Of a stretch of 50,110 bases of DNA, positions 27,495 through 50,110 are shown piece by piece. A program made the position numbers and the translations under genes. How positions within the stretch are numbered: the stretch's first letter is position 1; each line of letters begins with the position of its first letter. Under the pieces are notes generated by a model. The model did not search any database. It had not been told where the DNA came from and worked only from the letters and a program-made list of their open reading frames with translations. Source of the stretch: Candidatus Pacearchaeota archaeon CG1_02_39_14 (lineage in GTDB: Archaea; Nanobdellota; Nanobdellia; Pacearchaeales; GW2011-AR1); assembly GCA_001872315.1 (NCBI GenBank), contig MNVZ01000007.1, positions 1 through 50,110 of the forward strand, in the 5' to 3' direction.

Positions 27495-29930
27495 TTATTC
27501 TGTTACCAAGCTTGCTTCTGTCGCACTGGTTCCTACATACTTCTTGCCGATGTCGGTCATAACCTCTTCGGTAGTCAAGAATGTAGCGGCATTTGTTGTG
27601 TCTCCAGCTTCATAACCTGCAACAAGAGTTGCAATCTTTCCTGTTGACCATGGGTTACTGAAGGTCTGAATAAGGAAGCTTCCTGCTCCTACACCAGTAG
27701 TACTTTCCCAGGAAGGTCCACACATGGCGGAATCTCCTCCTAACAAAGTAGATGCTACAGTGTTAACACAACTACCCCCAACAACAATAAGGTTCTTGCT
27801 TGACACGGAAGTAACTTGCGCGTCAGTTACAAGAATCTGGCCTAAATCTGCGCCTCCACTTCCAACACTTGCGTCTTCGGCTACGAAGTAGACCAAAGCT
27901 TCCAAGAAATTGTCAGGGAAAGTTGCAGTTATCTTTGAAGGAGCGCTTGATGTATCAAGGTCCTCTACAATAGCACCGTATTTGGTTCTTGTAGTAGATA
28001 GGTCAGTATTGTCGTTATCAGTTACAAATGTTCCAGAGCTTCTTCTGCTACTTGATGATATCTCGTTGTCACTGTTATTTTGCAGGTCCATCGAGAATAT
28101 CAGCTGTGCTGTGGTAAGTGGGTTCTCATCGTCGTCTCTGTCTGTATCATCAGCCATAAGACTTACCTGCCACTTATCACCTAATCCATCTCCCGGTAGT
28201 TCAGATGTGTTTATATCTGTAATGTTCAGCAATCCGTTATACTGAGTTCTCATAAGAACTGTAACGGTTTCATGAGCACTTCCAGAGTAAACAACACCAT
28301 TTGCAGCACCGCTTAAAGCGAGGTCGAAGTCGTTAGATGTATCATCAGACTTATTCACAAAAGTGAATGTAGTTCCTCCCAGTTTAAGGGTGAACTGTTC
28401 TGCTGTAGCATCATAACTTCTTGCAATAGTGCCTTCTGAATCTCCAAGGACATCTAGGTTTACCTTAGGATCACTGTCTGATGATTTATCAGCTCCCTTA
28501 TACTGAACAACAAATGTTCTTGCGTCGTTTGCCGCAGCTGAAGAATCAGCAGTATTAAGGATGAAGTAGTCATCATCTGTGATTGTTCCGTTTGGTTCCA
28601 ATACAAGTCTGTCAGAAGCCTTGTCTCCGCTATAAATACCGGTGGCATTCGCGAATACTAAAGGCATGTCAATGTCATGTCCATCAACATTCATGAATTT
28701 CAGCTTGTACTTTGTGTCTCCACTGCTTGGCTCAAGAACGATTTCCTCAGTCATATGTTCCGCAAATCCATGGAACTCAACATCCCATCCCTGCGTGAAC
28801 AATACTTCTGGTTCGTCGAGGTTGTAAGCATCGCTTAGCTTACCTCCAACAGGAACAAACAAATCATCCTCCGCGGTCATGTTTATCTGGATATCATCTA
28901 TCAAGATGTCACCTCCGCTTGTAGTGTTTGTAATGGTTACAATAGCATCACTGATTGTTTCAGTGTTTACTTTCATTGTAGTGCCATCTTCAAGCTCAAG
29001 CTTGTCAGCTCCCAAGAAGACAGTTGCATACTGAACACCTCCCTGGTAATCTTGGTAAGTGATATCGCTAACACCTACATTGATTCCAGCAATGATTGTG
29101 GTATCTCCATCATTCAATGTGTTAGAGGTTTCTCCGTTAACAGTAAGCTTAGTCTGGGTAGTACCTGTTGTAACACCTTCCACAGTGTACTGCGTTCCGT
29201 CAATTGTTACAGTATAAACTTCTCCATTGTACACATCAAGCCTCTCAACTCCGCTCATCATTGTAAGCTTAACACCATTCGAAGTGCTTTCAGCCTTCGT
29301 TATAGTATATGTCTTACCAAGCATTGTCAAGTCCTTGTCTTCAACATCTTCCAATCTTCCTGTAGAATCAAGATCAGAATCAAGAGTTGTTGTAAAGTCA
29401 AGTTCGTAGACTCCAATGTGAACTCCACTTGAGAACTTAAGGAAATCTCCAATTACGTCTTCATCATCTTCATCATAGACAACAGATGCGTTAACACCTG
29501 CAGTTGTTGATTTATCATCAAAGAAGTTGAAGAATTCTTCGTAGTTAGCAGTCCCCTTCTCGTTTGTTACAGAACCTCCACCCAAAAGGGCCCAATCATC
29601 ATCATCGATGAAAGTTTCAATTCTGAACAAAGGCTCTCCAATTTCAAGCTCGTCAGTTCCTGTGCTTACTTGCCATACATCACCACTAACTATCACATTC
29701 CCGCTTCCGCTGGACTGTGCAGCAAGTGCGTCTGACAAGTCAGACTGGATGTTTGCAGCAGCAACCAAATCGCTATTTAAGGCAGAACTACCCCAAACTA
29801 TTCCTACATCAGCAGCACCGTTCTGTACAAATGGTGCAGGATAATTTGCAGCAGCAGCCAAGGCTATTGTCGAACCTATAAGTGCGGTCGAAGCAGCAGC
29901 CGAAGCAATTTTTCTGAAGTTAAATTTCAT
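27495..29930 (-). CDS. Major S-layer protein (Methanococcales/Thermococcales-type N- and C-terminal domains)
   Basis: MKFNFRKIAS signal, YPAPFV, D..AA..I, C-terminal NLIVVGGSCVN and LVAG....T..AA; Asp/Thr-rich; strong GGAGGT SD. Confidence 0.9.
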   Translation of the reverse strand: MKFNFRKIASAAASTALIGSTIALAAAANYPAPFVQNGAADVGIVWGSSALNSDLVAAANIQSDLSDALAAQSSGSGNVIVSGDVWQVSTGTDELEIGEPLFRIETFIDDDDWALLGGGSVTNEKGTANYEEFFNFFDDKSTTAGVNASVVYDEDDEDVIGDFLKFSSGVHIGVYELDFTTTLDSDLDSTGRLEDVEDKDLTMLGKTYTITKAESTSNGVKLTMMSGVERLDVYNGEVYTVTIDGTQYTVEGVTTGTTQTKLTVNGETSNTLNDGDTTIIAGINVGVSDITYQDYQGGVQYATVFLGADKLELEDGTTMKVNTETISDAIVTITNTTSGGDILIDDIQINMTAEDDLFVPVGGKLSDAYNLDEPEVLFTQGWDVEFHGFAEHMTEEIVLEPSSGDTKYKLKFMNVDGHDIDMPLVFANATGIYSGDKASDRLVLEPNGTITDDDYFILNTADSSAAANDARTFVVQYKGADKSSDSDPKVNLDVLGDSEGTIARSYDATAEQFTLKLGGTTFTFVNKSDDTSNDFDLALSGAANGVVYSGSAHETVTVLMRTQYNGLLNITDINTSELPGDGLGDKWQVSLMADDTDRDDDENPLTTAQLIFSMDLQNNSDNEISSSSRRSSGTFVTDNDNTDLSTTRTKYGAIVEDLDTSSAPSKITATFPDNFLEALVYFVAEDASVGSGGADLGQILVTDAQVTSVSSKNLIVVGGSCVNTVASTLLGGDSAMCGPSWESTTGVGAGSFLIQTFSNPWSTGKIATLVAGYEAGDTTNAATFLTTEEVMTDIGKKYVGTSATEASLVTE

Positions 29931-30340: not shown

Positions 30341-30700
30341 ATGGCGCAAAAAACAAAGACAAGGCAGATAACTATCGTCGATAAAGGGGGAACTTTCAAT
30401 ACACTCCTTAGAAGGTTCTCAGGCTCAAAGGAAGATTATGATTTTGAGGGCATTTCGGCACTAAGAAGGTTGCTTTCAAATGAAAAGGCAAGAATTCTCC
30501 ACACAATAAAAACAAATCAGCCAAATTCTGTTTATGATCTTGCTAAAATCCTGAAAAGAGATTTCAAGGCAGTGAGGGGAGACCTTGAATTGTTGTCAAG
30601 ATTTGGGTTTGTTGATTTAATTTCAGAGAAAAAAGGAAAGAGGGAAAGACTAAAACCAGTCCTCGCAGTTGATTCAATAAATATAGAGATTCAAGTCTAA
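30341..30700 (+). CDS. Winged-HTH transcriptional regulator
   Basis: LLS.EK.RIL..I....P.SVYDLAK.L.RDFK.V..DL..L...GFV. Confidence 0.85.
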   Translation: MAQKTKTRQITIVDKGGTFNTLLRRFSGSKEDYDFEGISALRRLLSNEKARILHTIKTNQPNSVYDLAKILKRDFKAVRGDLELLSRFGFVDLISEKKGKRERLKPVLAVDSINIEIQV

Positions 30701-31197
30701 TAGCAGAGTCTTAAGGTGTTTATTATCTTTCCCGGAAATGATGGGATTAGGTAACTTGCTCCTGAAATCCTGTTTCCACATTCCCCTTTCTTTATGACTA
30801 AAATCTCTTCCCTTTCAGCATCTTCTGAATCTCTGGAATATAGTGATTCAAACACATATCCCTTTATGCTTGAATTCTCCCCTGTCTTCCATGCGGTTTC
30901 CAAAACATCGTTCATCTGTTTTTCCAGCACTTCACAGCTATCCATGTCATTTATGCATATCTCTCCAGAATAACACCTCTCAAAGAGGCTTCCTAAGTCT
31001 GAATATTCATCGCTTCTTATCTGGCACTCCGTTGTAATCTCTCCTGCGCTTTCAAGAAACTGATAGACATCCTTGCTTTCCCGGTTGCTTTCATCAGGAT
31101 TCCTTATCATTATTCCAAGGAAGACCATCAGAATCACAACCACAATCACCATTATAAGAGCAAATCCTACTATCTCTTCCTGGCCTCTCTTCATCAT
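30697..31197 (-). CDS. Pilin-like protein with class III signal peptide
   Basis: MMKRG|QEEIVGFALIMVIVVVILMVFLG; Cys pairs. Confidence 0.75.
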   Translation of the reverse strand: MMKRGQEEIVGFALIMVIVVVILMVFLGIMIRNPDESNRESKDVYQFLESAGEITTECQIRSDEYSDLGSLFERCYSGEICINDMDSCEVLEKQMNDVLETAWKTGENSSIKGYVFESLYSRDSEDAEREEILVIKKGECGNRISGASYLIPSFPGKIINTLRLCY

Positions 31198-31694
31198 TCT
31201 GCGCTCCTAAACCCAAGGTGGATTTTACCAAGCTCACATTTAATCCCTTCATCATACCTGCATAGAGCAACAAAAGAGGTCCGGGCAATGAATCCTTCTT
31301 CCTTTATCAGAGTTATTGTGCTGCAGTCAGGGTAGTTCTGCCTTGTACACTCTCCTTTTTCAGGCACAGGATAAATTCTTTCTATCTGAAGGAAAGGAAC
31401 ATCCCAGAAATCTTCATAATTCTCACTTTCTTTAAGGATAAGTGTCTTGTCCATGTCAACACAGGCAGAGCAATCCTTCCAGCTTAATTCAGGCCATGAG
31501 CTTGCCATCCTCACAAGTTCCTTTGCTTCTTCATCTCTGATTGTTTCCACATCCTGCCTTAAGCTCCCAGACCTTATTGTAATATAAAATAAAGCCACTA
31601 TGGCAAAAAATATCATTATTGCTACTAACACAAAGGCCATCTGCTGTATCTTTACCTGTCCCTTTTTAAAATAGTTCGCACGAAAGTCTTTCAT
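31194..31694 (-). CDS. Pilin-like protein with class III signal peptide
   Basis: FKKG|QVKIQQMAFVLVAIMIFFAIVALFY; start uncertain. Confidence 0.75.
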   Translation of the reverse strand: MKDFRANYFKKGQVKIQQMAFVLVAIMIFFAIVALFYITIRSGSLRQDVETIRDEEAKELVRMASSWPELSWKDCSACVDMDKTLILKESENYEDFWDVPFLQIERIYPVPEKGECTRQNYPDCSTITLIKEEGFIARTSFVALCRYDEGIKCELGKIHLGFRSAE

Positions 31695-32580
31695 TTTTGT
31701 CCTCAATTTCCTCTGAATTTGATTTTACAACCCTCAAGTCTCCGGAATTTTCAAATTCTCCTAAAAGAGAGGAATATCTTCCCAAATCCCCCGCAAGATT
31801 GCTTGAACATCCTTTTCCGGCAAGGAATTCTGATTTCTTTGCATAAATCTCTGCTAATTCGGAAGTTCTTTTTATAAGTCTCCTGACCTGACATTCATAG
31901 ACTTCAGCATCACTAAATATTGCTGCATAAACAAGCCCCTCTTCATAGTAAAGCCCGTCAACATCAGTCTGGCTTACTTTTTTGTCACAATCTCTGTCAA
32001 ATGAAGAGAAACAGACTTTAATGCTTTCAGGCTTGCATTTTTCCAGGCTTTCGCTGATATTGATGCCAGGGAGCCTCAAATCCATGACTTCTTCTTCAAT
32101 CTCATCTCCCGGATTAATGAAACAGTACTCTCCAGAGTAAATTGTGATGATATCAGCTACATCATAGGGCATTTCAAAAGACTTAACAAAAACGTAAGCC
32201 TCTTCCCCCTGCAGAACACTCTTTGAAAAAACATACTTGTCCTTGCTTTCTATCTCCCCTCCCGGAGGCAACCACTCCTTTCCTATCCCGCTTCTTACTG
32301 AAGTGCTTATTAACTGGCTGCCAAATATTCCGATGCTTGAGCATCTATTATAAATTCTTGTTTCATCCGGAAATCCTATTCTGACAAATTTAGAATCCTC
32401 GAGATTAGTTCCAACAGGGCTTAATATTGACTCAAGCTGGGCCGCAATTTTAGTGTCCGTTTCATACCTGCCGCTCCCAATCAGGCTTGTTGTAGCATAA
32501 ATTGCCAGAAAAATTACAACAGCACCAACAAGTATGGCAAAAAGCCAGGCAAAACTAAATTCAAATCCTTTTCTGTTCAT
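31666..32580 (-). CDS. Pilin-like protein with class III signal peptide
   Basis: MNRKG|FEFSFAWLFAILVGAVVIFLAIY. Confidence 0.75.
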   Translation of the reverse strand: MNRKGFEFSFAWLFAILVGAVVIFLAIYATTSLIGSGRYETDTKIAAQLESILSPVGTNLEDSKFVRIGFPDETRIYNRCSSIGIFGSQLISTSVRSGIGKEWLPPGGEIESKDKYVFSKSVLQGEEAYVFVKSFEMPYDVADIITIYSGEYCFINPGDEIEEEVMDLRLPGINISESLEKCKPESIKVCFSSFDRDCDKKVSQTDVDGLYYEEGLVYAAIFSDAEVYECQVRRLIKRTSELAEIYAKKSEFLAGKGCSSNLAGDLGRYSSLLGEFENSGDLRVVKSNSEEIEDKNERLSCELF

Positions 32581-33086
32581 CTTCTAGCTTCCGTGCTTGG
32601 AATCTTTATTTTAACAAGAGAATCAAGGCTGTTTTTTTCCAATCCTATCCTGACTTCTCCGTTTTCTGCCTGGAAGCATACAAATCCTGATGAAGTATCT
32701 ATATGTTCAATATTTACATACGGTTGGTCGCATGCCTCTTCAGCAGGATAAAAAAGCATATTTCCCCTGGCAATATATCTTTTCAGCTCTCTGAATTCAT
32801 CCGCATATTCAGCTGATGTTGCTGTAGGGCTTGAGAAGCATACAGACTCAATTCCATTAGGGACTCTTCCTGTATAAACATCACTCACGATTTCAGAAGT
32901 CCAGGCCCTGTCAACGCTGTCCTGAAAACTATCCTTAAAAAGGCCGATATCTGCACATTTTCCTATTCCCATAAAAGCTACTATCACATAAATGCTGGCT
33001 CCGATTATAGCGATGACAATAATTATAGAAAAAATAACTCCCACACTTAGAAACTCTGTCTGTCCTCTTCTCCCCTCTCTAATCAT
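32577..33086 (-). CDS. Pilin-like protein with class III signal peptide
   Basis: GRRG|QTEFLSVGVIFSIIIVIAII; ATG 33086. Confidence 0.75.
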   Translation of the reverse strand: MIREGRRGQTEFLSVGVIFSIIIVIAIIGASIYVIVAFMGIGKCADIGLFKDSFQDSVDRAWTSEIVSDVYTGRVPNGIESVCFSSPTATSAEYADEFRELKRYIARGNMLFYPAEEACDQPYVNIEHIDTSSGFVCFQAENGEVRIGLEKNSLDSLVKIKIPSTEARR

Positions 33087-33120
33087 CAATGAAACTGGGA
33101 AATTTTATAATTAAATGTTT

Positions 33121-34617
33121 CTATTTGTTCTTTTGATTCTTTCCATTAATCTTGTAAGTATATCCTTCCTTATATCCCTCAAAACCTGCCCAGTTGACTC
33201 CTGGTCCGCAGTCTCCGAGAGCGCTGCATATCTCTCCCTGCCTCTCAATCCACGCATCAGTCAGGCATTCACAATTTTCTGTGCATTCCTCTCCTCCAAA
33301 CAATCCTTTTTCAATACTTACTACACACTGAACATTCGCCTGGCTGCATATTGCCTGAGCTTCTTCAGAATTCCAAAAACTTAATCCTGGGGAGGTTTCA
33401 GGAAGGCAAACTCCTTTCTTCCCGTTCCCAAGAACGCCATTTGGCTCCCAGAAGCAAGTTCTTCTGTCAGTATTGAGGCAATCTTCTTCAGTTTTCTGTG
33501 CGGTGCAATCCTGCCATCTGTTGACTCTGCATGCCGCTTGTGAGAAAGGACCATTTGCAGTTTCTATTGAATCTTCAATGCAAACCTCAGCTCTAAAATC
33601 CTCGCATGCTTCAGGAACAACCTCTCCGTTGATGCAGACATATCTAAAGTCCCTGCTCCCTACCCTGTCTTCTCCAGGCCCTTCCTTTTCGTCACCGATA
33701 CACCAACTTTCCCCATGCAGTCTTTCCTGTCCTTCAAACTCGCAGTTCAAATCAGCACAAATATAATCCCCATAAGTCGGGCTTGCTCCAGCATCATTTT
33801 CATGCCTTGCAAAACTTCCAAGAAGATAGTCACAATTCCCACAAGTCCTTGATTCTGCATTGCTTCGCCCATAACCGCAGCTTTCATCTTTTCTCTTTAA
33901 GTTTGTCCAGTATTCCTGATCCTCCACTTTTGAGGCATCATAAATATTAGCAGAATTTCCACAGCTGTCCTTCCAGTAAACCTCATCTTTCCCGGGGATA
34001 GTCATAGTGTCCCTTGTGGGACCGCATATTGTCCCTAATTCCTCCGCAGAGCACAGCTTACCTATATAGAACTCGCTTCCATCAACACTTTCGCAGTCAG
34101 ATTTTGTCGTAAACTTGCATGTTCTTTCAAACTCGCTCTTAAATACGCACGCTCCCTTGTCCTGATTCTGGACAGAAGCAATGCATGCGACTTCTGATTT
34201 TATGCTTTGGTCATAATTTGTCTGCAGTCCAAGAAAAGAAGAAAGCTTCTTGCATCTCACTAATGTAACAAAAGCTGCCTGGTCTCCAAGGGTGCAGCAT
34301 CCAAGTCCGCACTGTGGAGGGCTCTCCTCACTCCATATTCCCCCATTCTGGTTGCAAACTAATTGAGGAGTGTTATCAGAACAGGTTCCTTCAGTAGAAT
34401 CATAACAAGTCCCTTCTCTGCAGAAGCTTGTGGCTTCACAGCTTGTTGGAACCTGCCGGCTTCCTTCTGCGCATTCTTCAGAAGGCACATTTTGGCAGTA
34501 CGCCCCGGCATTTGTCTGCTCACAGCAGACTGTATTGCTCTGTGCAGATGTATAATTAGCAAGGGAAAGAACTGCAAGGGAGGCTAACACAATGATAAAA
34601 ATAAGTCTTTTGCTCAT
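33121..34617 (-). CDS. Secreted Cys-rich protein, paralog of the N-terminal half of 35691-39311
   Basis: Signal peptide; dense Cys; GTCYD, GCC, DSCGN, CGNCDYLLGS, GESWC, LGDCG. Confidence 0.88.
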   Translation of the reverse strand: MSKRLIFIIVLASLAVLSLANYTSAQSNTVCCEQTNAGAYCQNVPSEECAEGSRQVPTSCEATSFCREGTCYDSTEGTCSDNTPQLVCNQNGGIWSEESPPQCGLGCCTLGDQAAFVTLVRCKKLSSFLGLQTNYDQSIKSEVACIASVQNQDKGACVFKSEFERTCKFTTKSDCESVDGSEFYIGKLCSAEELGTICGPTRDTMTIPGKDEVYWKDSCGNSANIYDASKVEDQEYWTNLKRKDESCGYGRSNAESRTCGNCDYLLGSFARHENDAGASPTYGDYICADLNCEFEGQERLHGESWCIGDEKEGPGEDRVGSRDFRYVCINGEVVPEACEDFRAEVCIEDSIETANGPFSQAACRVNRWQDCTAQKTEEDCLNTDRRTCFWEPNGVLGNGKKGVCLPETSPGLSFWNSEEAQAICSQANVQCVVSIEKGLFGGEECTENCECLTDAWIERQGEICSALGDCGPGVNWAGFEGYKEGYTYKINGKNQKNK

Positions 34618-34895
34618 CTTTCAGCTCCTGAATAACTTTCATTTTTGGTGTAAGCTTCCCTTAATTCATTTAATCCATTTTCCAATTCTTTAACATCATC
34701 TGGAGCCATAAGTCCGGTAGCTCTAAGCCTTCTGAAATCGGAGATTGCTGCTCCAATACTAACTGCTAAATGGTCAAGATAGTCCTGAGGTGCTCCCATT
34801 CTTCTATTTCTTTTGCTAAATGCGTTTGTATGCCCATAGATTCTTCTCTTCAAATTCTCAACCTCTTCACTAAATCCTTTTACATGCGCTATCAT
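34614..34895 (-). CDS. Orphan 93-aa helical protein inside the pilin/Cys-rich cluster
   Basis: ATGA overlaps at both ends; no signal peptide and no Cys. Confidence 0.6.
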   Translation of the reverse strand: MIAHVKGFSEEVENLKRRIYGHTNAFSKRNRRMGAPQDYLDHLAVSIGAAISDFRRLRATGLMAPDDVKELENGLNELREAYTKNESYSGAER

Positions 34896-35690: not shown

Positions 35691-38600
35691 TTAATATCCA
35701 GACCTTGCCGTAGTGCAGCTTCCTGTATTGCCCCAGCCATCCTGACACTTTATGTAATAGTTTATCTGCGAATTGAAATCAGTAGTGTGCACTAAATCTG
35801 ACCCAGACATCTCAAATACATTCTCTCCTTCTATCTGGAAGCCGCAGCTATTGTGGCTGTAATAGCACATAGATTCTTCATTAGTTATCACTGTCAGCCT
35901 GCTTCCCTGTGAATAAACTCTTGTAATCATAGGCCCGATATCATCAACGTCTATCTCAAACTGCACGCCCGATTCAGCTACATTACCTGTGTCGTCCTCA
36001 CATCTTATCCCTATATCATAACTTCCCTCGAACAAGCTGGTGAAAACCTGCCTGTGCATGTCTGTCCCCGATTCAAAGAATCTTGCCAAATCATTATCCC
36101 CTCCAAATCCATAAGTGCAATACCGGTTCACAGGCGCCCCGCCAGAAGTTTCAACCTCTAGAGTAACTGTAACAGGTTGAGCTCCAGTGCTTATAACTCC
36201 CTCTTCCGCTTCAGGGTTCAATCTTATTTCTTCAATTATCAATAGTTCGCTTGTCTTTATGATCTTATACTCTACACCCTCATTATTTGTGTTCCTTTCT
36301 TCCTGTCCTGGCCTGTCTTTGCATCTGAAATAATAATTGGTTTCATTTTCGGAAACAGGAAGATTTGCACTGCACTCAAATCCAAACAGAGTATAATCTT
36401 CAAAATCATTATTGCAGGAAATTTCATTTTCCATCTGCTCATAATCTTTGTCTGTCAAACTGTATCTGCATTCAGCAGGCTCATTTGTATAGAAAGACAT
36501 GTTCATATTTTCTGCTTCCAGGGAGGCATAAGCAGGGCTTTCAGGCTCAAAGTTCTGCAATATCGGAGGGGTGATATCATTCTCTGGCGAGATACAGAAT
36601 CTTATTGCAAATTCATTCTCATTCTTGTTTCCAGAACCGTCTTGGCATCTTACAAATAAGTCAAAGTCAGCTCTTCTGTCAGGATCAAATCCGAACTCTC
36701 CCAGACTTTCCAGGCTTGGAAGGGATAATGCTGTAACATGATTTTTCTTGAAAAGGCTGCTCTCTCCAAAGAAGAATTCCATTTCATCATATTCTGCTGT
36801 ATGTTCAGTATCATACTTACACTGCCCGTGCTCATCCAGACTCACCCCAAAAGTAACCTGCGTATAAGCGGGGATGCATTCATTTTCCTTATGTTCCACT
36901 TTAAAGCTTCCGCTTGTAACCTCGGTATATTCAAAATCTTCTGAAATCACTTCATAATTAGGGCTTATTTTTGGGGCAAGAGTGTCATCTGGGGCAATGT
37001 CAATACATGCCTCCTCGCCTGTTCCTTCATTCACAAATTCACATGTCTGCCCAAGACTCTGGCATTTGTATTTAGAACAAGGCAAGTCTCCTTCAGTACA
37101 TGCCTCACAGCTATCTCCCCCAAGAGGCGGCTGCCACGGCATGCATGTAAATGCAACTTTCTTGGTTCTTGTATCTCCAATTCCAAGGAATTTGAATATT
37201 AGTATGATTATGATTATAACAATAATCGTCCACAATAACCAGCCATAACTAAACAATGCAACTCCATTGAATAGGCCGGGGATTCCAGTTGAGACAAACA
37301 ATCCTGTTGCAGCCCCTAATATTGTTACAGCAAGCAAAGCATCTCCCTCTAATCCAAATAATTTGCCAAGCAAGAATCCAATTGCAGCTCCAGCCGCAGC
37401 TCCAGCCGCAGCATTCAAGAAGGAGCTAGTAAAAGTAAACCCTTGATGCCCTAAGGCACCAAAGACTTCTGTAAATGTAAGCCCAACATTAACAAAGACG
37501 TAAGTATAATAGGCTAATACTACTCCCGTAGCTCCTGCTCCAAGACCTCCAATAATATTTGCAAGCTTGCTTTCAAACTCCGGATCATTTGGATCAAGAC
37601 CGAATAATGCGGCCGTCTCTTCTTCTGTTAATGGATCAACCTTCTGTCCTTGCACTGGCTCGGTATAAGATTGTAGTTCAGAAATATAATTTTGCCTTAA
37701 TTTCGGAGATCTTTTCACACTATACCCCGAGTCTGTAAATTCTCCTGCAATATTCACATTCCCTCCGCAATCTCCCAGGCTAATGCATAAATTATTCATT
37801 GTTTCTGCAAATCCAGGTTTAAGACAATCGCAATTGACTTCGCAATCCCATCCCCCAAAGCCTTTGACCTCAACAACAGTACATGTCTGTGTAGCAGCAG
37901 AACAAATAGATTCCCCTACTTCTCCCCCGAATTCTTCTTTTAAATCAAATCCAGGAGAATGCTTCGGAGCGCACACATCAAATTTGAAATTGCTTATTCT
38001 CACAGACTTTAAAAAACAGGCACTATTTTCTTCACATCTATCCAGTTTAGTTTTATCCTGGTTTGCAGCAATACATGACTGCCAGTTATTTATCCTGCAG
38101 GCAGCGCTGGAAAACCCAATCTCTTCATCCCTGGATTCCTGACATACTTCATTTCTGAAATCCTGGCACGGATCTGTCCTTACCTCTCCATCAACACAAA
38201 CCTGTCTGTAATGTCTGCTTCCTGGCAAATCAACGCTCCTTTCCTTATTCTTTGTGTCCCCCTGCACGCCTATTGCAGAATCAAAAGCGCACCAGCTCTC
38301 TCCGTTCTTTCTCTCCGCCCCCCATTCATCTATACATGACAGGTCTCTGCAGACATATTCTCCTTCTAAGGGCTTTTCATCATCTTCCCCAGGAGTTCCG
38401 CACAAACTTCCAAGAAGATAGTCGCAATTCCCACATCCTTCCTGATTGCTTCCATCAAGAGAGCAGCTTTCGTTCTTGCTGTAAATTCTGCTCCAGTAAT
38501 CATCATTGGCCTTCTTGTTGGTATCATAAACATTAGCTCTGTTTCCGCATGAGTCAAGGAAATAAACCTCGTCCTTGCTTTCAAAACAGCTCGTCTCTTT

Positions 38601-39311
38601 TGTTCTAGTGCAGATAGTATTTAACCCAGGATTCGTGCACAGCAATCCGGAATTAAACTCTCCTCCCATAGAAATGCAGTTTGCTTCAGTAGTAAATTCA
38701 CAATCGTACAAGCCGGGTTCCACTTCCTCCAAAACGCACGCCCCATCCTGCTGCTGCTCTCCTAATAGAAGGCATTCCAGTTCATTTTCAACTTCCTGCC
38801 ACTCCCCGGAAATTCCCAGTCTGTTCTCAAGAACGCTGCATGCCTGTTCAGTAATATAATTTGCATTTCCTCCAATAAGACAGCAACCTGGATTGCATTG
38901 TGCAGGCTCCTGCTCAAACCATTGCCCTCCTGAATTTTCACAAGCAAGTTTTGGAGACTGTGCAGAACAGGTTCCTTCCAGGTTGTCATAGCATGTCCCC
39001 AGCTGACATTCACGTGTTTCGCTTCTTTTAGAAGGAATGCAATCTTCTAAGCATAAGTCGTTGCATATTTCCGACGGATACTCCTGACATATGGTTCCAT
39101 TCAGGCCCTCAAGGCACGTCCATAACCCTTCCTGCGCGCTCACTAGCCCATTAGATAAATACCCAAGTATCTTTTCTCTAAGCCAGGTAACAGTTTCATC
39201 CTCAACTGATTTTCCCGGAACAAGTGCAGAACTTTCATGAATAAAATATGAAACAGCAAAACCTGCAGCAATCATAATAAATATTTCAAACAAAGCAATA
39301 TTTTTTCTCAT
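35691..39311 (-). CDS. Giant (~1,206 aa) Cys-rich surface protein with internal Gly/Ala-rich hydrophobic domain and C-terminal Ig-like repeats
   Basis: ATG 39311 overlaps the upstream TGA. C-terminal repeats T(N/D)E...C.Y and RC.D..GN. Confidence 0.88.
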   Translation of the reverse strand: MRKNIALFEIFIMIAAGFAVSYFIHESSALVPGKSVEDETVTWLREKILGYLSNGLVSAQEGLWTCLEGLNGTICQEYPSEICNDLCLEDCIPSKRSETRECQLGTCYDNLEGTCSAQSPKLACENSGGQWFEQEPAQCNPGCCLIGGNANYITEQACSVLENRLGISGEWQEVENELECLLLGEQQQDGACVLEEVEPGLYDCEFTTEANCISMGGEFNSGLLCTNPGLNTICTRTKETSCFESKDEVYFLDSCGNRANVYDTNKKANDDYWSRIYSKNESCSLDGSNQEGCGNCDYLLGSLCGTPGEDDEKPLEGEYVCRDLSCIDEWGAERKNGESWCAFDSAIGVQGDTKNKERSVDLPGSRHYRQVCVDGEVRTDPCQDFRNEVCQESRDEEIGFSSAACRINNWQSCIAANQDKTKLDRCEENSACFLKSVRISNFKFDVCAPKHSPGFDLKEEFGGEVGESICSAATQTCTVVEVKGFGGWDCEVNCDCLKPGFAETMNNLCISLGDCGGNVNIAGEFTDSGYSVKRSPKLRQNYISELQSYTEPVQGQKVDPLTEEETAALFGLDPNDPEFESKLANIIGGLGAGATGVVLAYYTYVFVNVGLTFTEVFGALGHQGFTFTSSFLNAAAGAAAGAAIGFLLGKLFGLEGDALLAVTILGAATGLFVSTGIPGLFNGVALFSYGWLLWTIIVIIIIILIFKFLGIGDTRTKKVAFTCMPWQPPLGGDSCEACTEGDLPCSKYKCQSLGQTCEFVNEGTGEEACIDIAPDDTLAPKISPNYEVISEDFEYTEVTSGSFKVEHKENECIPAYTQVTFGVSLDEHGQCKYDTEHTAEYDEMEFFFGESSLFKKNHVTALSLPSLESLGEFGFDPDRRADFDLFVRCQDGSGNKNENEFAIRFCISPENDITPPILQNFEPESPAYASLEAENMNMSFYTNEPAECRYSLTDKDYEQMENEISCNNDFEDYTLFGFECSANLPVSENETNYYFRCKDRPGQEERNTNNEGVEYKIIKTSELLIIEEIRLNPEAEEGVISTGAQPVTVTLEVETSGGAPVNRYCTYGFGGDNDLARFFESGTDMHRQVFTSLFEGSYDIGIRCEDDTGNVAESGVQFEIDVDDIGPMITRVYSQGSRLTVITNEESMCYYSHNSCGFQIEGENVFEMSGSDLVHTTDFNSQINYYIKCQDGWGNTGSCTTARSGY

Positions 39312-40305: not shown

Positions 40306-41037
40306 TTAATCGTCCTGCTCGACTCTTGGCGCAAGGACAAAAGAAAGCATTATATTTCCCGTTGGAAAGTTAATTCTCATAGGATGGTTGTCAGAGAAAT
40401 TTAATACTGCCTTGTCAGATATTTTGGCTCCCTTTATGAATTTTGCAAGATACTCAAGTGAAAATCTGGCAATGCTGTTTCCTGAATGGATTTCAACTTC
40501 ATCACTACTGAACTCGGCTCTGGCTGAATTAAGGCCTTTTGCTTCAATTATAAATCTATTCGGTTCAGCGATAAATGTGCAGGCATCGCTCACGACTCTG
40601 CAATCTTCAATAACATCTGTCAGTGCATCAGAATCTATTTTTATCACGCTGTCAAACTCCCATTGGGGCATTTCCTTCTCCTCGCCTTCAACATCTATTA
40701 ATGCAAGAGTAAAATCTCTCTTGACTTTGTCCTGAATCCCAAGCTTCAATATATTTTCATCTTCCTTTTCAATTGTAAGAGAGCTTCCCATCCCGCATCT
40801 CTTGAGCACGTTCTTAAGATTATCAAGATTGACTCCCAAAACTTCCTCCTTGTCTACCTCAAAGACGGAAAATCTGTCAGGAGGGAGGTTAAAATAGACC
40901 ATTGCAACACTTGCAGGGTCCACAGCCACTAGGTTAACTCCTTCTTTATTGATTTTCAGTCTGACTTCAGTAACAAGTTCAGAGATGATTCCTATGATAT
41001 TGCCCAGGAGTCTTGGGTCCTCTAATTTTAACTTCAT
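40306..41037 (-). CDS. pcn: DNA sliding clamp PCNA
   Basis: AVDPASVAMV, LGVNL, FSLEYL, F.LAPRV. Confidence 0.96.
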   Translation of the reverse strand: MKLKLEDPRLLGNIIGIISELVTEVRLKINKEGVNLVAVDPASVAMVYFNLPPDRFSVFEVDKEEVLGVNLDNLKNVLKRCGMGSSLTIEKEDENILKLGIQDKVKRDFTLALIDVEGEEKEMPQWEFDSVIKIDSDALTDVIEDCRVVSDACTFIAEPNRFIIEAKGLNSARAEFSSDEVEIHSGNSIARFSLEYLAKFIKGAKISDKAVLNFSDNHPMRINFPTGNIMLSFVLAPRVEQDD

Positions 41038-41125: not shown

Positions 41126-42703
41126 ATGTCAGAAAAGGAGGAAAGAATCCGTTCTATAGTCAGCATATATTACTCAAATCCTGCGGTGCAAAAAGCCCTT
41201 TTTGAATTTGCACAAAACAGGGAAGTTGTTCCCCGTTATTTTGAGGGTTTTGGAAAGAGGCCTGACACCTTCCAGTATCCAGGGGATGTGATGGCTGCTG
41301 TAAAAAAAGGGGCAACCTCATTTCATGCTTCAGAAGAAATATGGAGAGACCCTCTTCAGCTAAGTTCAGACTTTTCCCCCTCAGAACTTTCTGAACTAAG
41401 GAAAGCATGGGACATGCTTATTGATGTAGATTCTCCTTTTTTGGATTATTCGAAGATAGCCACAACACTTCTTGCAAACGCTCTTGAATCACATGGAGTC
41501 AAGAGTTACGCAATAAAATTTTCAGGAAGCAAGGGATTTCATCTGATTGTACCTTCAGAAGCATTTCCCAAAGAGTTCAGAGAGCAGGAAACAAAAGACA
41601 TGTTCCCAGAGTGGCCAAGGGCAATCTGCGAGTATCTAATGGAATTTATCAAGCCCGAATACAATAGGGCAATTTCAGATTTGGGAGTCAATTATAAGGC
41701 AATAAAAGAAAGGACAAACCTCTCAAAAGAAGATATAACAAAAATAATCTGTCCTGAATGCGGAAGCAAGGCTGAAAAGACCAATCTTGTGACTCTAAAA
41801 TGTAACCGTTGTCAAAACGTACAGCATAGGCCCTCCTTCAAGGTCACAAAAAGAAGACTAAGGTGTATAGAACTTTCCTGCCCGGGGGAATACGAATTAG
41901 AGTCCGAAGCTGAACTTTACAGGTGCAAGGCTTGCAGTTATTCATCATTTGACAAGACCTCTTTCAGCACAAGGAACATAGCAACTCATACTTCAGAAGC
42001 AAAGAAATCAAAATACTCGCAGGAATTTAAAGAAGAAGTTTCAGGAGAGGCGCTAGGTTCTCTGGATTTGGTCCTTGTCGCCCCAAGACATTTGTTTAGA
42101 ATGCCCTACTCCCTTCATGAGAAAACGGCTCTTGCAAGTGTAGTCCTGTCAAAAGAAGAGATAGCCGGATTCACCCCAAAAGATGCTAATCCTCTTAACG
42201 TAAAAATAAAATCATTTTATCCAGTCGTAAAGACGCCGGAAGCAAGAAATCTTTTATCATCAGCCTTGAACTGGAAAAAAGGCAGAGAGGAGACGCAGGA
42301 AAAGGAGATTAAGAAAAAATATGAGTCTATGGAGTTTGAGGCCATGGACCTTTCCCATATCGAAGAAAAAGATTTTCCTCTCCCTATAAAAAATCTGATG
42401 AAAGGGCTGAAAGATGGAAGAAAAAGAGGGTTGTTTGTTCTTCTGACTTTCCTAAGAAGCATAGGATATCCCCCAGATAAGATTAATGAAACTTGCAGGA
42501 CATGGAATAAAAAAAACGAGCAGCCATTAAAAGAAGGATATCTAAAAAGCCAGATAGATTGGCATCTGAAGCAAAAGCGCAGAATACTTCCTCCTAACTA
42601 TTCCAATCAGGCTTTCTATAAAGATTTACAGCTTTTTGAAACTCCACCAAAGGAAAAAAATCCTTTGTCAGAGATAATGAAAAAGGTAAAAAACCGCAGA
42701 TAA
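41126..42703 (+). CDS. priSL: Fused archaeal primase PriS-PriL(CTD) with Zn-ribbon insertion
   Basis: AEP motifs WDMLIDVD, KFSGSKGFH, HLFRMPYSLHEK; C-terminal DGRKR.LFVL..FL...WN...LPPN domain; next to PCNA. Confidence 0.85.
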   Translation: MSEKEERIRSIVSIYYSNPAVQKALFEFAQNREVVPRYFEGFGKRPDTFQYPGDVMAAVKKGATSFHASEEIWRDPLQLSSDFSPSELSELRKAWDMLIDVDSPFLDYSKIATTLLANALESHGVKSYAIKFSGSKGFHLIVPSEAFPKEFREQETKDMFPEWPRAICEYLMEFIKPEYNRAISDLGVNYKAIKERTNLSKEDITKIICPECGSKAEKTNLVTLKCNRCQNVQHRPSFKVTKRRLRCIELSCPGEYELESEAELYRCKACSYSSFDKTSFSTRNIATHTSEAKKSKYSQEFKEEVSGEALGSLDLVLVAPRHLFRMPYSLHEKTALASVVLSKEEIAGFTPKDANPLNVKIKSFYPVVKTPEARNLLSSALNWKKGREETQEKEIKKKYESMEFEAMDLSHIEEKDFPLPIKNLMKGLKDGRKRGLFVLLTFLRSIGYPPDKINETCRTWNKKNEQPLKEGYLKSQIDWHLKQKRRILPPNYSNQAFYKDLQLFETPPKEKNPLSEIMKKVKNRR

Positions 42704-42733: not shown

Positions 42734-44527
42734 ATGAAAAAATCAGGGGTGCTTGCATTTTTGTTTATTCTGCTGTTATTGTATCCGGTAATTGCCCAGG
42801 AAGAGGAGGGAATTGACAAGGCATATCTCTGTCTTGAGAATCAGATAGCAAACAAGACTTCAGGATCCCTGTCCTTGCAGGAAGCTGTTTTCTCAACTCT
42901 CGCTCTAGGCTCTGAATCAAAGCTTACTGATAAAATTGAAGATGAAAGATCAAACCAGAATTGCTGGCCAAAAGAATCCTGCACAATAAAGGACACAGCA
43001 CAGGTGCTCATAGCATACGACAGGATAAACAAGAACACAGAATCAATACAATCATATTTACTGTCAAGAAACGGCTCTGCAACCGACCTCACATGGTATT
43101 TGCAGGTAGATATTTCAAATCATATACCCTCCGCATGTACTTTTACCTACGATGAGAGGGATTATCAGGTAAGCATCGGCGAAGACATGAAAATTTCAGG
43201 CAGTGCAGGATCCTGTCTTCAATTAAGCTCTTCAGGGTATTGGTTGCAGATATCAAGAAATTGTTTCGAAAAAACTTTCCAGGTCTCTTGCGACGAAGAT
43301 TTCATAACCTCTCTTCTTTATCAAAAATCAGGTTCGGAAACAATATATGTTTCTTCTGAAACCCATTCGGCGCCTTCTTCCGGAACGACAGAGGAGCGCG
43401 TGGACTCCCAGTGCTTCAAGTCAGGAAGTTCATGTGATTATGAGGGGACTTTATGGGCTGCATTGGCATTGCAAAAAGCAGGCGAGGAAATATCTTCGTT
43501 CCTGCCATATCTTCTTGCTCTATCAGAAGATCATAATAACTTATTTCCGAGTTCCTTTCTGTATCTTCTTACCTCCGGAGATGACCAATACTCCCAGATA
43601 ACGCAGGCACAGAAAACGGCAGGATTCTGGGAAGCTCCAAATACGAAGTACAACAAATTCTATGACACCTCACTCGGCCTTCTAGCCCTGCAGGATTCTT
43701 CCGCAGCGGAATCTGACACCGCGAAGGCATATCTGCTATCAGTTCAGACCCCAAAAGGGTGCTGGAACAATAATAATATCAGAGACACAGCATTTCTTCT
43801 CTATTCAGGATGGCCAAGAGGAGTTTCTTCAGGTGGTGGGGAAGGAGAAGGTGGAGAATTAACTTGCGCAGGGGCGGGATACTATTGTGGTTCCCAATTT
43901 GACTGCGCAGAATCTGAAGGACAGATTTTGAACGAGTTCAGCTGCCAGGGTTTCCAGTCCTGTTGTTCGGTTCCAATAATTGAGCAGACTTGCTCTGAAA
44001 AATCAGGAGTTTTATGCTCATTTAGTGAGCAATGTTCAGGAACGGAAGTTTCTTCTGTTGAAGGCACATGCTGTCTTGGTTCCTGCCGGCCTATAACTCT
44101 GGAAACTTCGGAGTGCGAGGACAATGGAGGATTCTGTTCTTCCTTCTGTGAAGATAATGAAGAACAGGCTTCATATTCCTGCGGAAATTCCGGAGGAGTG
44201 TGCTGCATACCAAGTGAAAGTTCCGGAGGGATTTCCTTAATTTGGATTGTTCTCCTTGCAATCCTTATATTGCTGGTCGTTCTGGGAATAATCTTCAGAG
44301 ACAAAATAAAGCTCTGGTGGTTCAAGATGAGAAACAGGAAGAATTCTGATAAGAGTCCTTCAGAAATGTCTGGTCCAAGGCCACCTCCAAGATTCCCTCC
44401 AGTTCAAAGAGGGCCTCCGATTCAGAGACAGCCGTTGATGAGAAGGCCGCAGCCGAGAAGGGCATCATCGAGGGCCGATAGCGATATGGAAGAGACTCTT
44501 AGAAAGCTTAAAGAAATGAGTAAATAA
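42734..44527 (+). CDS. Surface protein with alpha/alpha-toroid-like repeats, Cys-rich modules, TM and Pro/Arg-rich tail
   Basis: Signal peptide; Q...G.W repeats (QKTAGFW, YLLSVQTPKGCW); C...GG.C...CC modules. Confidence 0.8.
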   Translation: MKKSGVLAFLFILLLLYPVIAQEEEGIDKAYLCLENQIANKTSGSLSLQEAVFSTLALGSESKLTDKIEDERSNQNCWPKESCTIKDTAQVLIAYDRINKNTESIQSYLLSRNGSATDLTWYLQVDISNHIPSACTFTYDERDYQVSIGEDMKISGSAGSCLQLSSSGYWLQISRNCFEKTFQVSCDEDFITSLLYQKSGSETIYVSSETHSAPSSGTTEERVDSQCFKSGSSCDYEGTLWAALALQKAGEEISSFLPYLLALSEDHNNLFPSSFLYLLTSGDDQYSQITQAQKTAGFWEAPNTKYNKFYDTSLGLLALQDSSAAESDTAKAYLLSVQTPKGCWNNNNIRDTAFLLYSGWPRGVSSGGGEGEGGELTCAGAGYYCGSQFDCAESEGQILNEFSCQGFQSCCSVPIIEQTCSEKSGVLCSFSEQCSGTEVSSVEGTCCLGSCRPITLETSECEDNGGFCSSFCEDNEEQASYSCGNSGGVCCIPSESSGGISLIWIVLLAILILLVVLGIIFRDKIKLWWFKMRNRKNSDKSPSEMSGPRPPPRFPPVQRGPPIQRQPLMRRPQPRRASSRADSDMEETLRKLKEMSK

Positions 44528-48542: not shown

Positions 48543-49502
48543 ATGGCAAAAGAATACAAATTCATAATCTTGGGGGCTGGAGGAACAGGTCTTGCAGCAG
48601 GAATGTACGCTGCCCGTCTTGGCTTGAAAACTCTTATCCTCGGATATTCTCATGGCTCTGAACTTCCTGTAGGAGGGGTTATAACAACTACGAATATAGT
48701 TGAAAACTATCCGGGCTTCAAGAAGCTCACAGGAACAGAAATTGCCAAAAAAATAGAAGATCATGCCAGAGAGTATGAATTAGTTGACATAGTGGAAGAG
48801 AAGGCAATGAGCGTCAAAAAAGAGGGAAAATTTTTCATTGTGAACACAGAAGAGTCTGAATATAAGGCGAATGCAGTCCTTTTTGCGACAGGTACAAAGT
48901 GGAGAAAGCTTCCTGAAGAAATAAAGGGAGGCAGGGAATTTGAGAACCGCGGGGTAAATTACTGCGCTCTTTGTGACGGTCCGCTTTTCAAAAACAAGAC
49001 TGTTGCGGTTATAGGAGGCAGCGATTCTGCGGCAAAAGATGCCCTTGTCCTTGCAGAACATGCAAAAAAGGTCTATATTATATACAGAGGGAACGAAATT
49101 CACCCGGAGCCAATAAATCTTCAGAGAGTGAATGCAAATAAAAAGATAGAATTAATCACCAACACAAACCTGACTGAAGTTAAGGGAAAGGACTTTGTCG
49201 AATCAGTTATGCTTGATAAAAAATACAACGGAAGCAGCGAACTTAAGCTTGATGGAATCTTTGTTGCTATAGGCCATCTTGTCCTATCTGATTTAGCCAA
49301 GCCTCTTGGGGTTGAGCTGAACAAGAAAAATGAAATCATAATAGACCACAAGGATTCTTCAACAAACGTTCCTGGCATCTTTGCAGCAGGAGATGTGGCT
49401 GATAAGCCATTCAAGCAGCTCATTACAGGGGTTGCAGAAGGGTGCACCGCAGCGCATTCCGCCTACGAGTACATAACAAAATCATTTGTTGAGACTTCTT
49501 AA
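48543..49502 (+). CDS. trxB: Thioredoxin reductase
   Basis: GAGGTG, VENYPG, YCALCDG, IGGSDSA, GIFAAGDV, Q.IT...EG. Confidence 0.95.
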   Translation: MAKEYKFIILGAGGTGLAAGMYAARLGLKTLILGYSHGSELPVGGVITTTNIVENYPGFKKLTGTEIAKKIEDHAREYELVDIVEEKAMSVKKEGKFFIVNTEESEYKANAVLFATGTKWRKLPEEIKGGREFENRGVNYCALCDGPLFKNKTVAVIGGSDSAAKDALVLAEHAKKVYIIYRGNEIHPEPINLQRVNANKKIELITNTNLTEVKGKDFVESVMLDKKYNGSSELKLDGIFVAIGHLVLSDLAKPLGVELNKKNEIIIDHKDSSTNVPGIFAAGDVADKPFKQLITGVAEGCTAAHSAYEYITKSFVETS

Positions 49503-50110
49503 CTTTAGATATTCATAAATCGGGCCTATTGCTGCTCCAAAAAGAGGATAATAAATTAAATCATCTAAAGGCATTTTTAAAATCACAATTTCAGGTACAT
49601 TCTCGAAATACCAAAAACCCAGCCATCCGGGAGTGAGAATTTCAACAAGATTATAAATTATAATGGACGCTGCAAGGAACAATGCTCCCGTGATTAAAGA
49701 GCTTTTTATGGTTTCAGGTCTTTTATAATAAATTCTCATCAGTCCAAGGACGAGGATGGCTGTAGTCGTGATAAATGTGTTCAAGCCAAAAAAGAAGTGA
49801 AGGACAAGAAATAATCCTAAGACTATTCCTATAATGGCTCCATATTTATTATAGTCTATCTCTGCCTTTTTTGTCTTCCCTGAAATCCAGCAAAACAATC
49901 CCATAGCAAAACCTCCCTTTGCGAAGGCATAAAGAAAGTCTTCAATTGCAGGAATATTGCCTGATAGGGTCAGAGGCATCCACCAGTCGCGTATATAAAT
50001 TACATTCAGAAAGATGCCCATGACTCCCAGGCCAACCGAGATAAGAGTCAATTCTTTTCTTATTTCTTTCAATTTTAAAAAGAAAAAAAGCCATCCTGCC
50101 AGAAAAAACA
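49482..50110 (-). CDS. Lycopene-cyclase-domain (CrtYc/d-like) membrane protein, 5' partial
   Basis: Duplicated P.ED.LY motif (PAIEDFLYAF, MPLDDLIYY); the frame stays open to the window edge. Confidence 0.6.
   Translation of the reverse strand, partial: FFLAGWLFFFLKLKEIRKELTLISVGLGVMGIFLNVIYIRDWWMPLTLSGNIPAIEDFLYAFAKGGFAMGLFCWISGKTKKAEIDYNKYGAIIGIVLGLFLVLHFFFGLNTFITTTAILVLGLMRIYYKRPETIKSSLITGALFLAASIIIYNLVEILTPGWLGFWYFENVPEIVILKMPLDDLIYYPLFGAAIGPIYEYLKLRSLNK

Follow-up and report, generated by a model that had tools for sequence, protein, structure and literature searches.

A conserved, predicted helical glycine- and alanine-rich block within a pilin-coupled surface protein family of Pacearchaeales archaea

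Results and Discussion

Gene cluster and overall features

The DNA analyzed here (the window) is a 50,110-nucleotide stretch of Candidatus Pacearchaeota archaeon CG1_02_39_14, corresponding to contig C18 of its 688-kb genome. The window carries a gene for a large secreted protein, P0001, in which two Cys-rich lobes, A and B, flank a hydrophobic block, H (Table 1). The genes are arranged in the order PCNA, a 258-amino-acid (aa) pilin-like gene, P0001, a 253-aa pilin-like gene, a 498-aa paralog of P0001, and four small pilin-like genes, with an S-layer-like gene further on. P0001 likely starts with an ATG at 39311 that overlaps the stop codon of the gene upstream. Secretion ATPases, two TadC pairs, a prepilin peptidase, and AglB/STT3 are encoded elsewhere in the genome, with the pilus ATPase and TadC genes on other contigs and none in the P0001 cluster. 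The block is real and conserved and belongs to an uncharacterized family of pilin-coupled surface proteins; it is tentatively read below as an arm that is exported and then inserted into the cell's own membrane.

Table 1. Features of the P0001 gene and its neighbors, in window positions
Feature	Position	Strand	Remarks
P0001 gene, 1206-aa secreted modular protein A-H-B	35691..39311	-	Open reading frame (ORF); Pacearchaeota-type surface protein
N-terminal signal	39135..39311	-	Basic start, hydrophobic helix, amphipathic stretch, VSA cleavage-like motif; probable cleavage
Lobe A, Cys-rich ectodomain	37623..39134	-	Residues 60-563, 43 Cys; sequon-poor
Beta-hairpin 474-497 of lobe A	37821..37892	-	From covariation; predicted partner of the strand that follows the block; hydrophobic tip close to where helix 4 ends
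Helix 1	37503..37562	-	Residues 584-603, marginally hydrophobic
Loop 1-2	37419..37502	-	Residues 604-631; hypervariable, apolar, never N-x-S/T
Helix 2	37362..37418	-	Glycine zipper GAAAGAAIG; G637, A638, and G641 kept in 77, 87, and 95% of 119 homologs
12-bp tandem	37384..37412		2.4 copies; Tandem Repeats Finder score 44, under the default cutoff of 50
Acidic turn LFGLEGDAL between helices 2 and 3	37335..37361	-	12 Asp/Glu versus 2.3 Lys/Arg per 100 residues
Helix 3	37290..37334	-	Residues 660-674, GxxxG; predicted antiparallel to helix 2 (G641-G666, G649-L659 couplings)
Loop 3-4	37239..37289	-	Residues 675-691; variable, apolar
Helix 4	37194..37238	-	Residues 692-706; only strongly hydrophobic segment
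Strand 713-723	37143..37175	-	Predicted antiparallel to strand 474-483; holds the Lys/Arg that follow helix 4
Lobe B	35694..37175	-	7-Cys knot, then immunoglobulin (Ig)-like domains; 21 Cys
Pilin-like partner gene, 258 aa	39311..40087	-	KGQITLF class III-type signal; overlaps the P0001 start codon
Second pilin-like paralog, 253 aa	34892..35653	-	Shares 31% identity with the first; lies upstream of the A-only paralog
A-only paralog, 498 aa	33121..34617	-	Likely split-form partner of the contig C15 gene
Four further small genes with pilin-like N termini	30697..33089	-	Follow the cluster in many relatives

Composition and conservation of the block

The block (IIGGLG...ILIF; 121 aa, residues 586 to 706, window 37194-37556, minus strand) contains 21 Gly and 17 Ala residues and only four charged residues (E615, K650, E655, and D657) plus H622, with 43 Cys ahead of it and 21 after it, which confirms an earlier note on this DNA that had described a nearly uncharged block of about 125 residues between Cys-rich domains. 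Only one other 121-residue window among the 610 ORFs of the genome is poorer in charge, and it belongs to a 295-aa polytopic protein on contig C16, so charge poverty alone does not single out the block. Its Gly+Ala content (31%) exceeds that of all 81 four-helix spans of the 33 polytopic proteins encoded in the same genome (maximum, 27.1%). The glycine zipper includes G637, G641, G649, G653, G666, and G670, conserved at 77 to 95%, and G641 is coupled with G666. A short DNA tandem had also been reported at about 37384-37410; the repeat is present, but it codes for the AAAG-AAAG zipper turns, and same-genus relatives differ in sequence there, which makes it an echo of the zipper motif at the codon level and no element of its own.

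Across 119 homologs, mean identity is 42% in the core (residues 633 to 672) and 43% in lobe B, against 18% in residues 586 to 632 and 10% in residues 673 to 690. In six relatives with N-lobes 67 to 74% identical, loop 1-2 is only 11 to 25% identical; the hypervariability that the earlier note had suggested looking for among homologs is seen in loop 1-2, and the zipper core is conserved. Four DNA read runs gave no sign of population-level variation: they differed at two single bases, both outside the block, and had a 1-base gap in one contig of depth 4.9.

Exactly one strong hydrophobic segment was counted in 110 of 117 blocks, and the strongest segment was the last helix in all 117, on a crude insertion scale and after 3 of 120 blocks were dropped, one of them for having no hydrophobic stretch. 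An AlphaFold2 model of 278 residues, built from 28 sequences (mean predicted local distance difference test [pLDDT], 62.9; predicted template modeling score, 0.39), places helices at approximately 594-609, 613-622, 629-651, 656-674, and 690-709, with a pLDDT of about 75 to 81 in helices 2 to 4 and about 50 before them. Since the model omits strand 474-483, as well as lobes A and B, it does not address the A-B sheet described below. In a mean-field covariation analysis of 262 sequences, weaker couplings place helix 4 alongside the helix 2-3 hairpin; covariation of the block only was weaker than that of the full set and gave no clear partner for helix 1. Covariation and the low-confidence model together predict that helices 2, 3, and 4 bundle, with the acidic turn next to the outer domain. 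In one relative (L164:538-4275), the distal loop of the arm contains an inserted 10-Cys module, located between the first and last hydrophobic helices.

Distribution and forms of the family

Matches to the family were found in 56 of the 61 genomes sampled from the order, which makes it nearly universal there, and in 218 of the 301 genomes sampled from the phylum, where many matches are weak; this figure counts one unpublished genome, on which no other result depends. With the block and its flanks as the profile, 1,522 clusters at 50% identity were retrieved, and the homologs that carry a name are labeled Ca. Pacearchaeota or Nanoarchaeota. The family is retained in genomes of 0.5 to 1 Mb, usually as two paralogs, and the archaea carrying it are tiny and likely host dependent. 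No family for P0001 as a whole exists in Pfam or NCBIfam. PHROGs gave no named family, only four unnamed ones that each matched 1 of 26 blocks at E values of 0.02 to 0.09, and the ESM Atlas gave only unnamed Nanobdellota clusters (0.91 and 0.86) and a tape-measure cluster (0.75) under the lead level. Two pattern scans of viral contigs revealed no relative, and literature searches, whose scope did not extend to supplements such as those of 10.1101/2023.02.24.529834 or PMC4858521, found no published description of the family.

The members occur in three forms, namely fused A-H-B, A alone, and signal-spacer-H-B, the last two of which are often neighbors. The 498-aa paralog matches residues 57 to 541 of P0001 at 40% identity (65 to 549 in GTG-start numbering); the earlier note had it end just before the block, but it ends about 45 residues earlier. 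A third paralog, missed earlier, is a 714-aa gene on contig C15 (L031:9972-12116) comprising a signal peptide, a spacer, a weaker three-helix block, and a C-terminal lobe, and is likely the block-plus-B half of the 498-aa A-only protein. It stands alone within a run of RNA polymerase, S12, S7, and EF-2 genes, far from its A-only half. In another block-plus-B paralog (L049:10371-12752), the spacer begins with a LysM-like motif, recognized by eye, and Cys modules. Two fused second copies (L036:8336-11953 and L044:8181-12335) have a signal-peptide-like VSG stretch at the A/spacer junction, as though they had arisen by fusion of the split form.

Among genes with a readable upstream neighbor (36 others were cut off), 101 of 117 fused and 42 of 46 A-only ones have a pilin-like gene immediately upstream. 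The upstream partner has a conserved K.GQVTIFII motif. P0001 itself has a conserved Glu/Gln at about position +5 in 202 of 223 long homologs and a VSA-like motif in 187 of them; its N terminus is bipartite, with the pilin-like Glu/Gln 5 residues past the basic start and the VSA motif about 35 residues past the hydrophobic helix. Classification of P0001 as an archaeal pilin was rejected, as it reads MRKN-IALFE, without the [KR][GA] cleavage motif before the hydrophobic helix. Most of the clusters inspected contain two paralogs of unequal hydrophobicity.

Position of the two lobes

Covariation across the block indicates how its flanks are arranged. Cross-block pairs rank second and fourth and form the antiparallel run 474-722, 476-720, 481-715, and 483-712; the top couplings of 12.4 and 11.6 fell to at most 3.8 after three random re-pairings and to 2.1 after nearest-neighbor re-pairing. 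Charge is swapped at the pair 524/734, and in 16 of the 262 sequences positions 488 and 714 both hold Cys. In 260 of 290 fused members, both lobes have an odd Cys count, as they mostly do when they occur as separate chains, which suggests one A-B disulfide bond. The flanks are thus predicted to form one beta-sheet, with both Cys-rich lobes on the outer side. Lys/Arg residues follow helix 4 in 118 of 119 homologs, which hinted at a single-pass type I topology with lobe B inside. This topology was rejected because the flanks covary as one sheet, which places these residues on an outer strand and not in a cytoplasmic tail. Lobe B contains sequons (N-x-S/T) at the expected level (1,205 versus 1,165), and sequons therefore do not place it; its Ig-like domains matched Big_13 in 19 of 25 members at an E value of ≤0.1. 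No covariation above shuffles was detected between the pilin-like partner and the P0001 N terminus or block in shallow sets of 138 and 96 pairs, or between the signal helices and the block (top coupling, 4.6 versus 4.5 shuffled; shallow set), where T65-L546, outside the block, alone stood out at 7.8.

Charge and sequon distribution

With both lobes outside, a four-pass anchor requires loops 1-2 and 3-4 to be inside. In 119 homologs, Lys/Arg make up 1.7 (loop 1-2) and 0.5 (loop 3-4) of every 100 residues, and the positive-inside loops of an ordinary multipass anchor, which the earlier note had set against its own proposal, are absent. The median Lys/Arg content of the whole block is 0.8, versus 5.1 for four-helix spans encoded in the same genome; for Lys/Arg, 93 of 117 blocks are under the 5th percentile of these controls, and all 117 exceed their Gly+Ala maximum.

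Between the first hydrophobic segment and the last helix, 226 nonredundant members contain 8 sequons versus 64 ± 8 expected, and seven control motifs in the same stretch are at or above expectation, within about 2 standard deviations. In loop 1-2, the count is 0 versus 18.9 ± 3.8 expected and, with each alignment column counted once, 0.1 versus 18 to 28 at neighboring offsets. No sequon loss was observed in the archaeon's own cytoplasmic proteins (518 versus 548), own polytopic proteins (40 versus 36), PCNA (44 versus 43), or TadC (22.7 versus 23 to 28). The absence from loop 1-2 suggests that this loop is exported, in which case helix 1, the loop, and helix 2 would meet AglB on the outer face and glycan sites would be purged. 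The pilin-like partner is also sequon-poor (95 versus 204). Sequon use among 50 secreted-like proteins of the genome looks two-sided, several being enriched (26 versus 16, 28 versus 15, and 24 versus 11) and several having none versus 3 to 4 expected; in these archaea, the avoidance of sequons may mark topology in general.

An ordinary four-pass anchor, inserted cotranslationally with cytoplasmic loops, would be compatible with two outer lobes, and four segments reach a Kyte-Doolittle (KD) value of ≥1.3 in 149 of 253 members. However, there is no reason for sequons to be purged from a loop that stays in the cytoplasm throughout, and the low Lys/Arg and high Gly+Ala contents set the blocks apart from the controls. 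Judged from its lack of positive-inside loops, its single strong helix, and its sequon-free loop 1-2, the block is probably not an ordinary anchor, and we regard this explanation as the least probable of those weighed here.

Alternatively, the helices may not lie in lipid at all but against the hydrophobic N-terminal helices of pilin-like subunits, within the tip of a filament or an envelope complex. Such packing is consistent with the members that have at most one hydrophobic segment, with amphipathic last helices containing Gln/Asp/Arg, and with the sequon avoidance shared with the pilin-like partner. The pilin-like gene tracks lobe A and not the block, however, as its position before A-only genes indicates, and helix 4 has a ten-residue Ile/Val/Leu run typical of lipid-facing helices. 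Pilin packing is thus improbable, if somewhat less so than an ordinary anchor.

Proposed export followed by insertion, or possible insertion into the host

The most likely reading, which we hold tentatively, is a four-helix arm that is exported and then inserted into the cell's own membrane. It starts from what the sequences and counts show directly, that is, the composition, conservation pattern, missing positive-inside loops, sequon absence, split and fused paralogs, and coupling to a pilin-like gene. The block would be a Gly/Ala-rich, near-uncharged insert forming an arm looped out of one disulfide-bonded outer domain. After Sec export of the protein, helices 3 and 4 would anchor the arm in the archaeon's own membrane, and helix 1, loop 1-2, and helix 2, exported first, would later be inserted beside them. 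A glycan or charge on loop 1-2 would block this late passage through the bilayer, which could explain the purging of sequons. Oligomerization through the zipper might then give a ring of the TraT/SlyB kind in which the adhesin lobes are held, whether or not it conducts. For AQP1, a translocated helix is documented to insert late (PMC8657811). Three observations limit the charge and sequon evidence for this reading. The Lys/Arg minimum of the genome's own four-helix spans is 0, so some ordinary spans are equally poor; SecY cytoplasmic loops contain 4 sequons versus 19.3 expected in raw counts, although these 24 columns are unremarkable when weighted and SecY is too conserved to serve as a sequon control; and loop 3-4, with 3 sequons versus 5.6 expected, shows no clear loss. 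If export followed by insertion is correct, the arm would be unusual in lying in the middle of a disulfide-clamped domain.

The earlier note had instead proposed that the block may enter the host membrane as a pore, bridge, or fusion module and not anchor in the cell's own membrane. The part that is supported is that the block is probably not an ordinary anchor, given the low Lys/Arg content of its loops and the hypervariable, sequon-free loop 1-2; for the host-directed part, no colicin, translocator, or fusogen was among the fold matches listed, and helix 4 strongly resembles a stop-transfer segment. In its present form, the host-inserting arm (a translocator, pore, or bridge) would be displayed with the pilin-like partner at the contact site, where the lobes would bind the host surface; the arm or the helix 1-2 hairpin would enter the host membrane and bring the hypervariable loop or spacer, free of glycans, across it, and the two paralogs would correspond to the strong subunit and the weak subunit of a two-component pore. 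Besides loop 1-2, sequons are also absent from the polar loops of 20 second-copy members (0 versus 11.1) and avoided in the exported spacer. The hairpin tips are uncharged and are where the protein diverges fastest, and the unequal paralogs, the upstream pilin-like gene, and the pilus genes elsewhere in the genome would also suit such an arm. In addition, the glycine zippers of Tde1 are reported to permeabilize target membranes (PMC10240207). However, the producer's Sec system should retain helix 4, and neither an extraction route nor a chaperone has been shown. Few residues tether helix 2 to helix 3, which gives a short reach if helices 3 and 4 stay home. Moreover, the polar-loop clade consists mostly of second copies, i.e., paralogs, for which reason an argument that orthologs lack anchors was dropped, and the best-known zipper analogs in the fold search are proteins of the producer's own envelope. 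Insertion into the host is considered rather unlikely, though it is the strongest of the alternatives.

DPANN archaea are seen to form cytoplasmic bridges with their hosts, and the bridge proteins are stated to be unknown (10.1101/2023.02.24.529834; PMC11329633). A pilin-coupled, two-paralog Pacearchaeales translocon, with lobes docking on the host and arms carrying loops or spacers into the host cytoplasm to open a symbiont-host bridge, is a slightly more doubtful proposal than host insertion in general; if host insertion is correct, the family would be a first candidate for a DPANN translocon and a candidate for the symbiont-host bridge. New here are the covariation that pairs both flanks outside and the finding that the block is, by sequence, probably no ordinary anchor and has a sequon-free loop 1-2. 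The sequon and covariation results sharpen a vague "anchor or pore" question into a form that can be tested at the bench.

Comparison with known systems

The fold comparison that the earlier note had called for found no colicin, translocator, or fusogen among the matches listed, with the low-confidence 278-residue model as the query. Profiles of translocators, colicins, and fusogens in Pfam likewise gave no match at an E value of ≤0.01 for the protein or ≤0.1 for 26 blocks. Of the Pfam glycine-zipper families PF13488, PF05433, and PF13441, all rejected, PF13488 scored 17.2 bits versus a curated cutoff of 25, and at most 2 of 26 members matched any one glycine-zipper model at an E value of ≤0.1.

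The nearest named zipper hairpins are those of TraT (F-plasmid surface exclusion) and SlyB, both located in the producer's own envelope, with a fold match of only about 50 residues that is not significant. By analogy, the block would work like a TraT/SlyB-type zipper hairpin, and it is not a member of those families; P0001 differs in having two more helices, 1,206 aa, two disulfide-rich lobes, and no outer membrane. A TraT/SlyB-type lipoprotein was rejected, since the first Cys is residue 66, after the VSA-type motif, and there is no lipobox-type Cys. The likeness to membrane hairpins of chains that we take to be of the Tim17/Tim22/Tim23 type reflects a common arrangement; those proteins are mitochondrial inner-membrane translocases without large ectodomains.

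Like the block, the type III secretion system (T3SS) translocator AopB, the N-terminal Rhs/Tde1 zippers of type VI secretion systems (T6SS), and colicin hairpins have Gly/Ala-rich uncharged helices, one strong and several marginal. AopB was the sole PDB sequence match of the full-length profile, located on the block (E = 2.7; not significant); the match to Tre23 (E = 0.84) was not significant either, and a zinc antiporter scored better (E = 0.14). AopB- and Tde1-type proteins exit by the T3SS or T6SS with chaperones, whereas P0001 has a Sec-type signal and disulfide-rich lobes. A likeness of the hydrophobic and Cys-rich region to the mating-pair stabilization protein TraN was rejected (hhalign probability versus R27 TrhN, 0.2%; no plasmid match at an E value of ≤10). 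In common with the archaeal type IV pilus loci that encode minor pilins and adhesins (PMC4858521), the P0001 cluster has class III-type signals in the neighbors, large secreted proteins, and a nearby S-layer-like gene; unlike them, it has no ATPase or TadC gene. PMC4858521 contains neither "DPANN" nor "Woesearchaeota," and the passages of it covered describe no mid-chain membrane arm.

Other genes in the window

The second pilin-like gene and the A-only gene are separated by a 93-aa helical-looking ORF (34614-34895, minus strand); in one relative (L051), a 94-aa ORF occupies the same place, and other genomes have unrelated inserts at the cluster junctions. Downstream of the pilin-like cluster, an 811-aa gene (27495-29930, minus strand) matches S_layer_C just above the cutoff. 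PCNA lies at 40306-41037, and divergent from it is a 525-aa ORF (41126-42703, plus strand) with weak matches to the small and large primase subunits. The next gene (42734-44527, plus strand) encodes a 597-aa secreted protein with no Pfam match, which has Cys-rich repeats at the C terminus, a single strong membrane helix, and a basic tail rich in Pro and Arg. An ORF at 49482-50072 (minus strand) matches Lycopene_cyc (PF18916) above the cutoff, which is unexpected in so reduced a genome.
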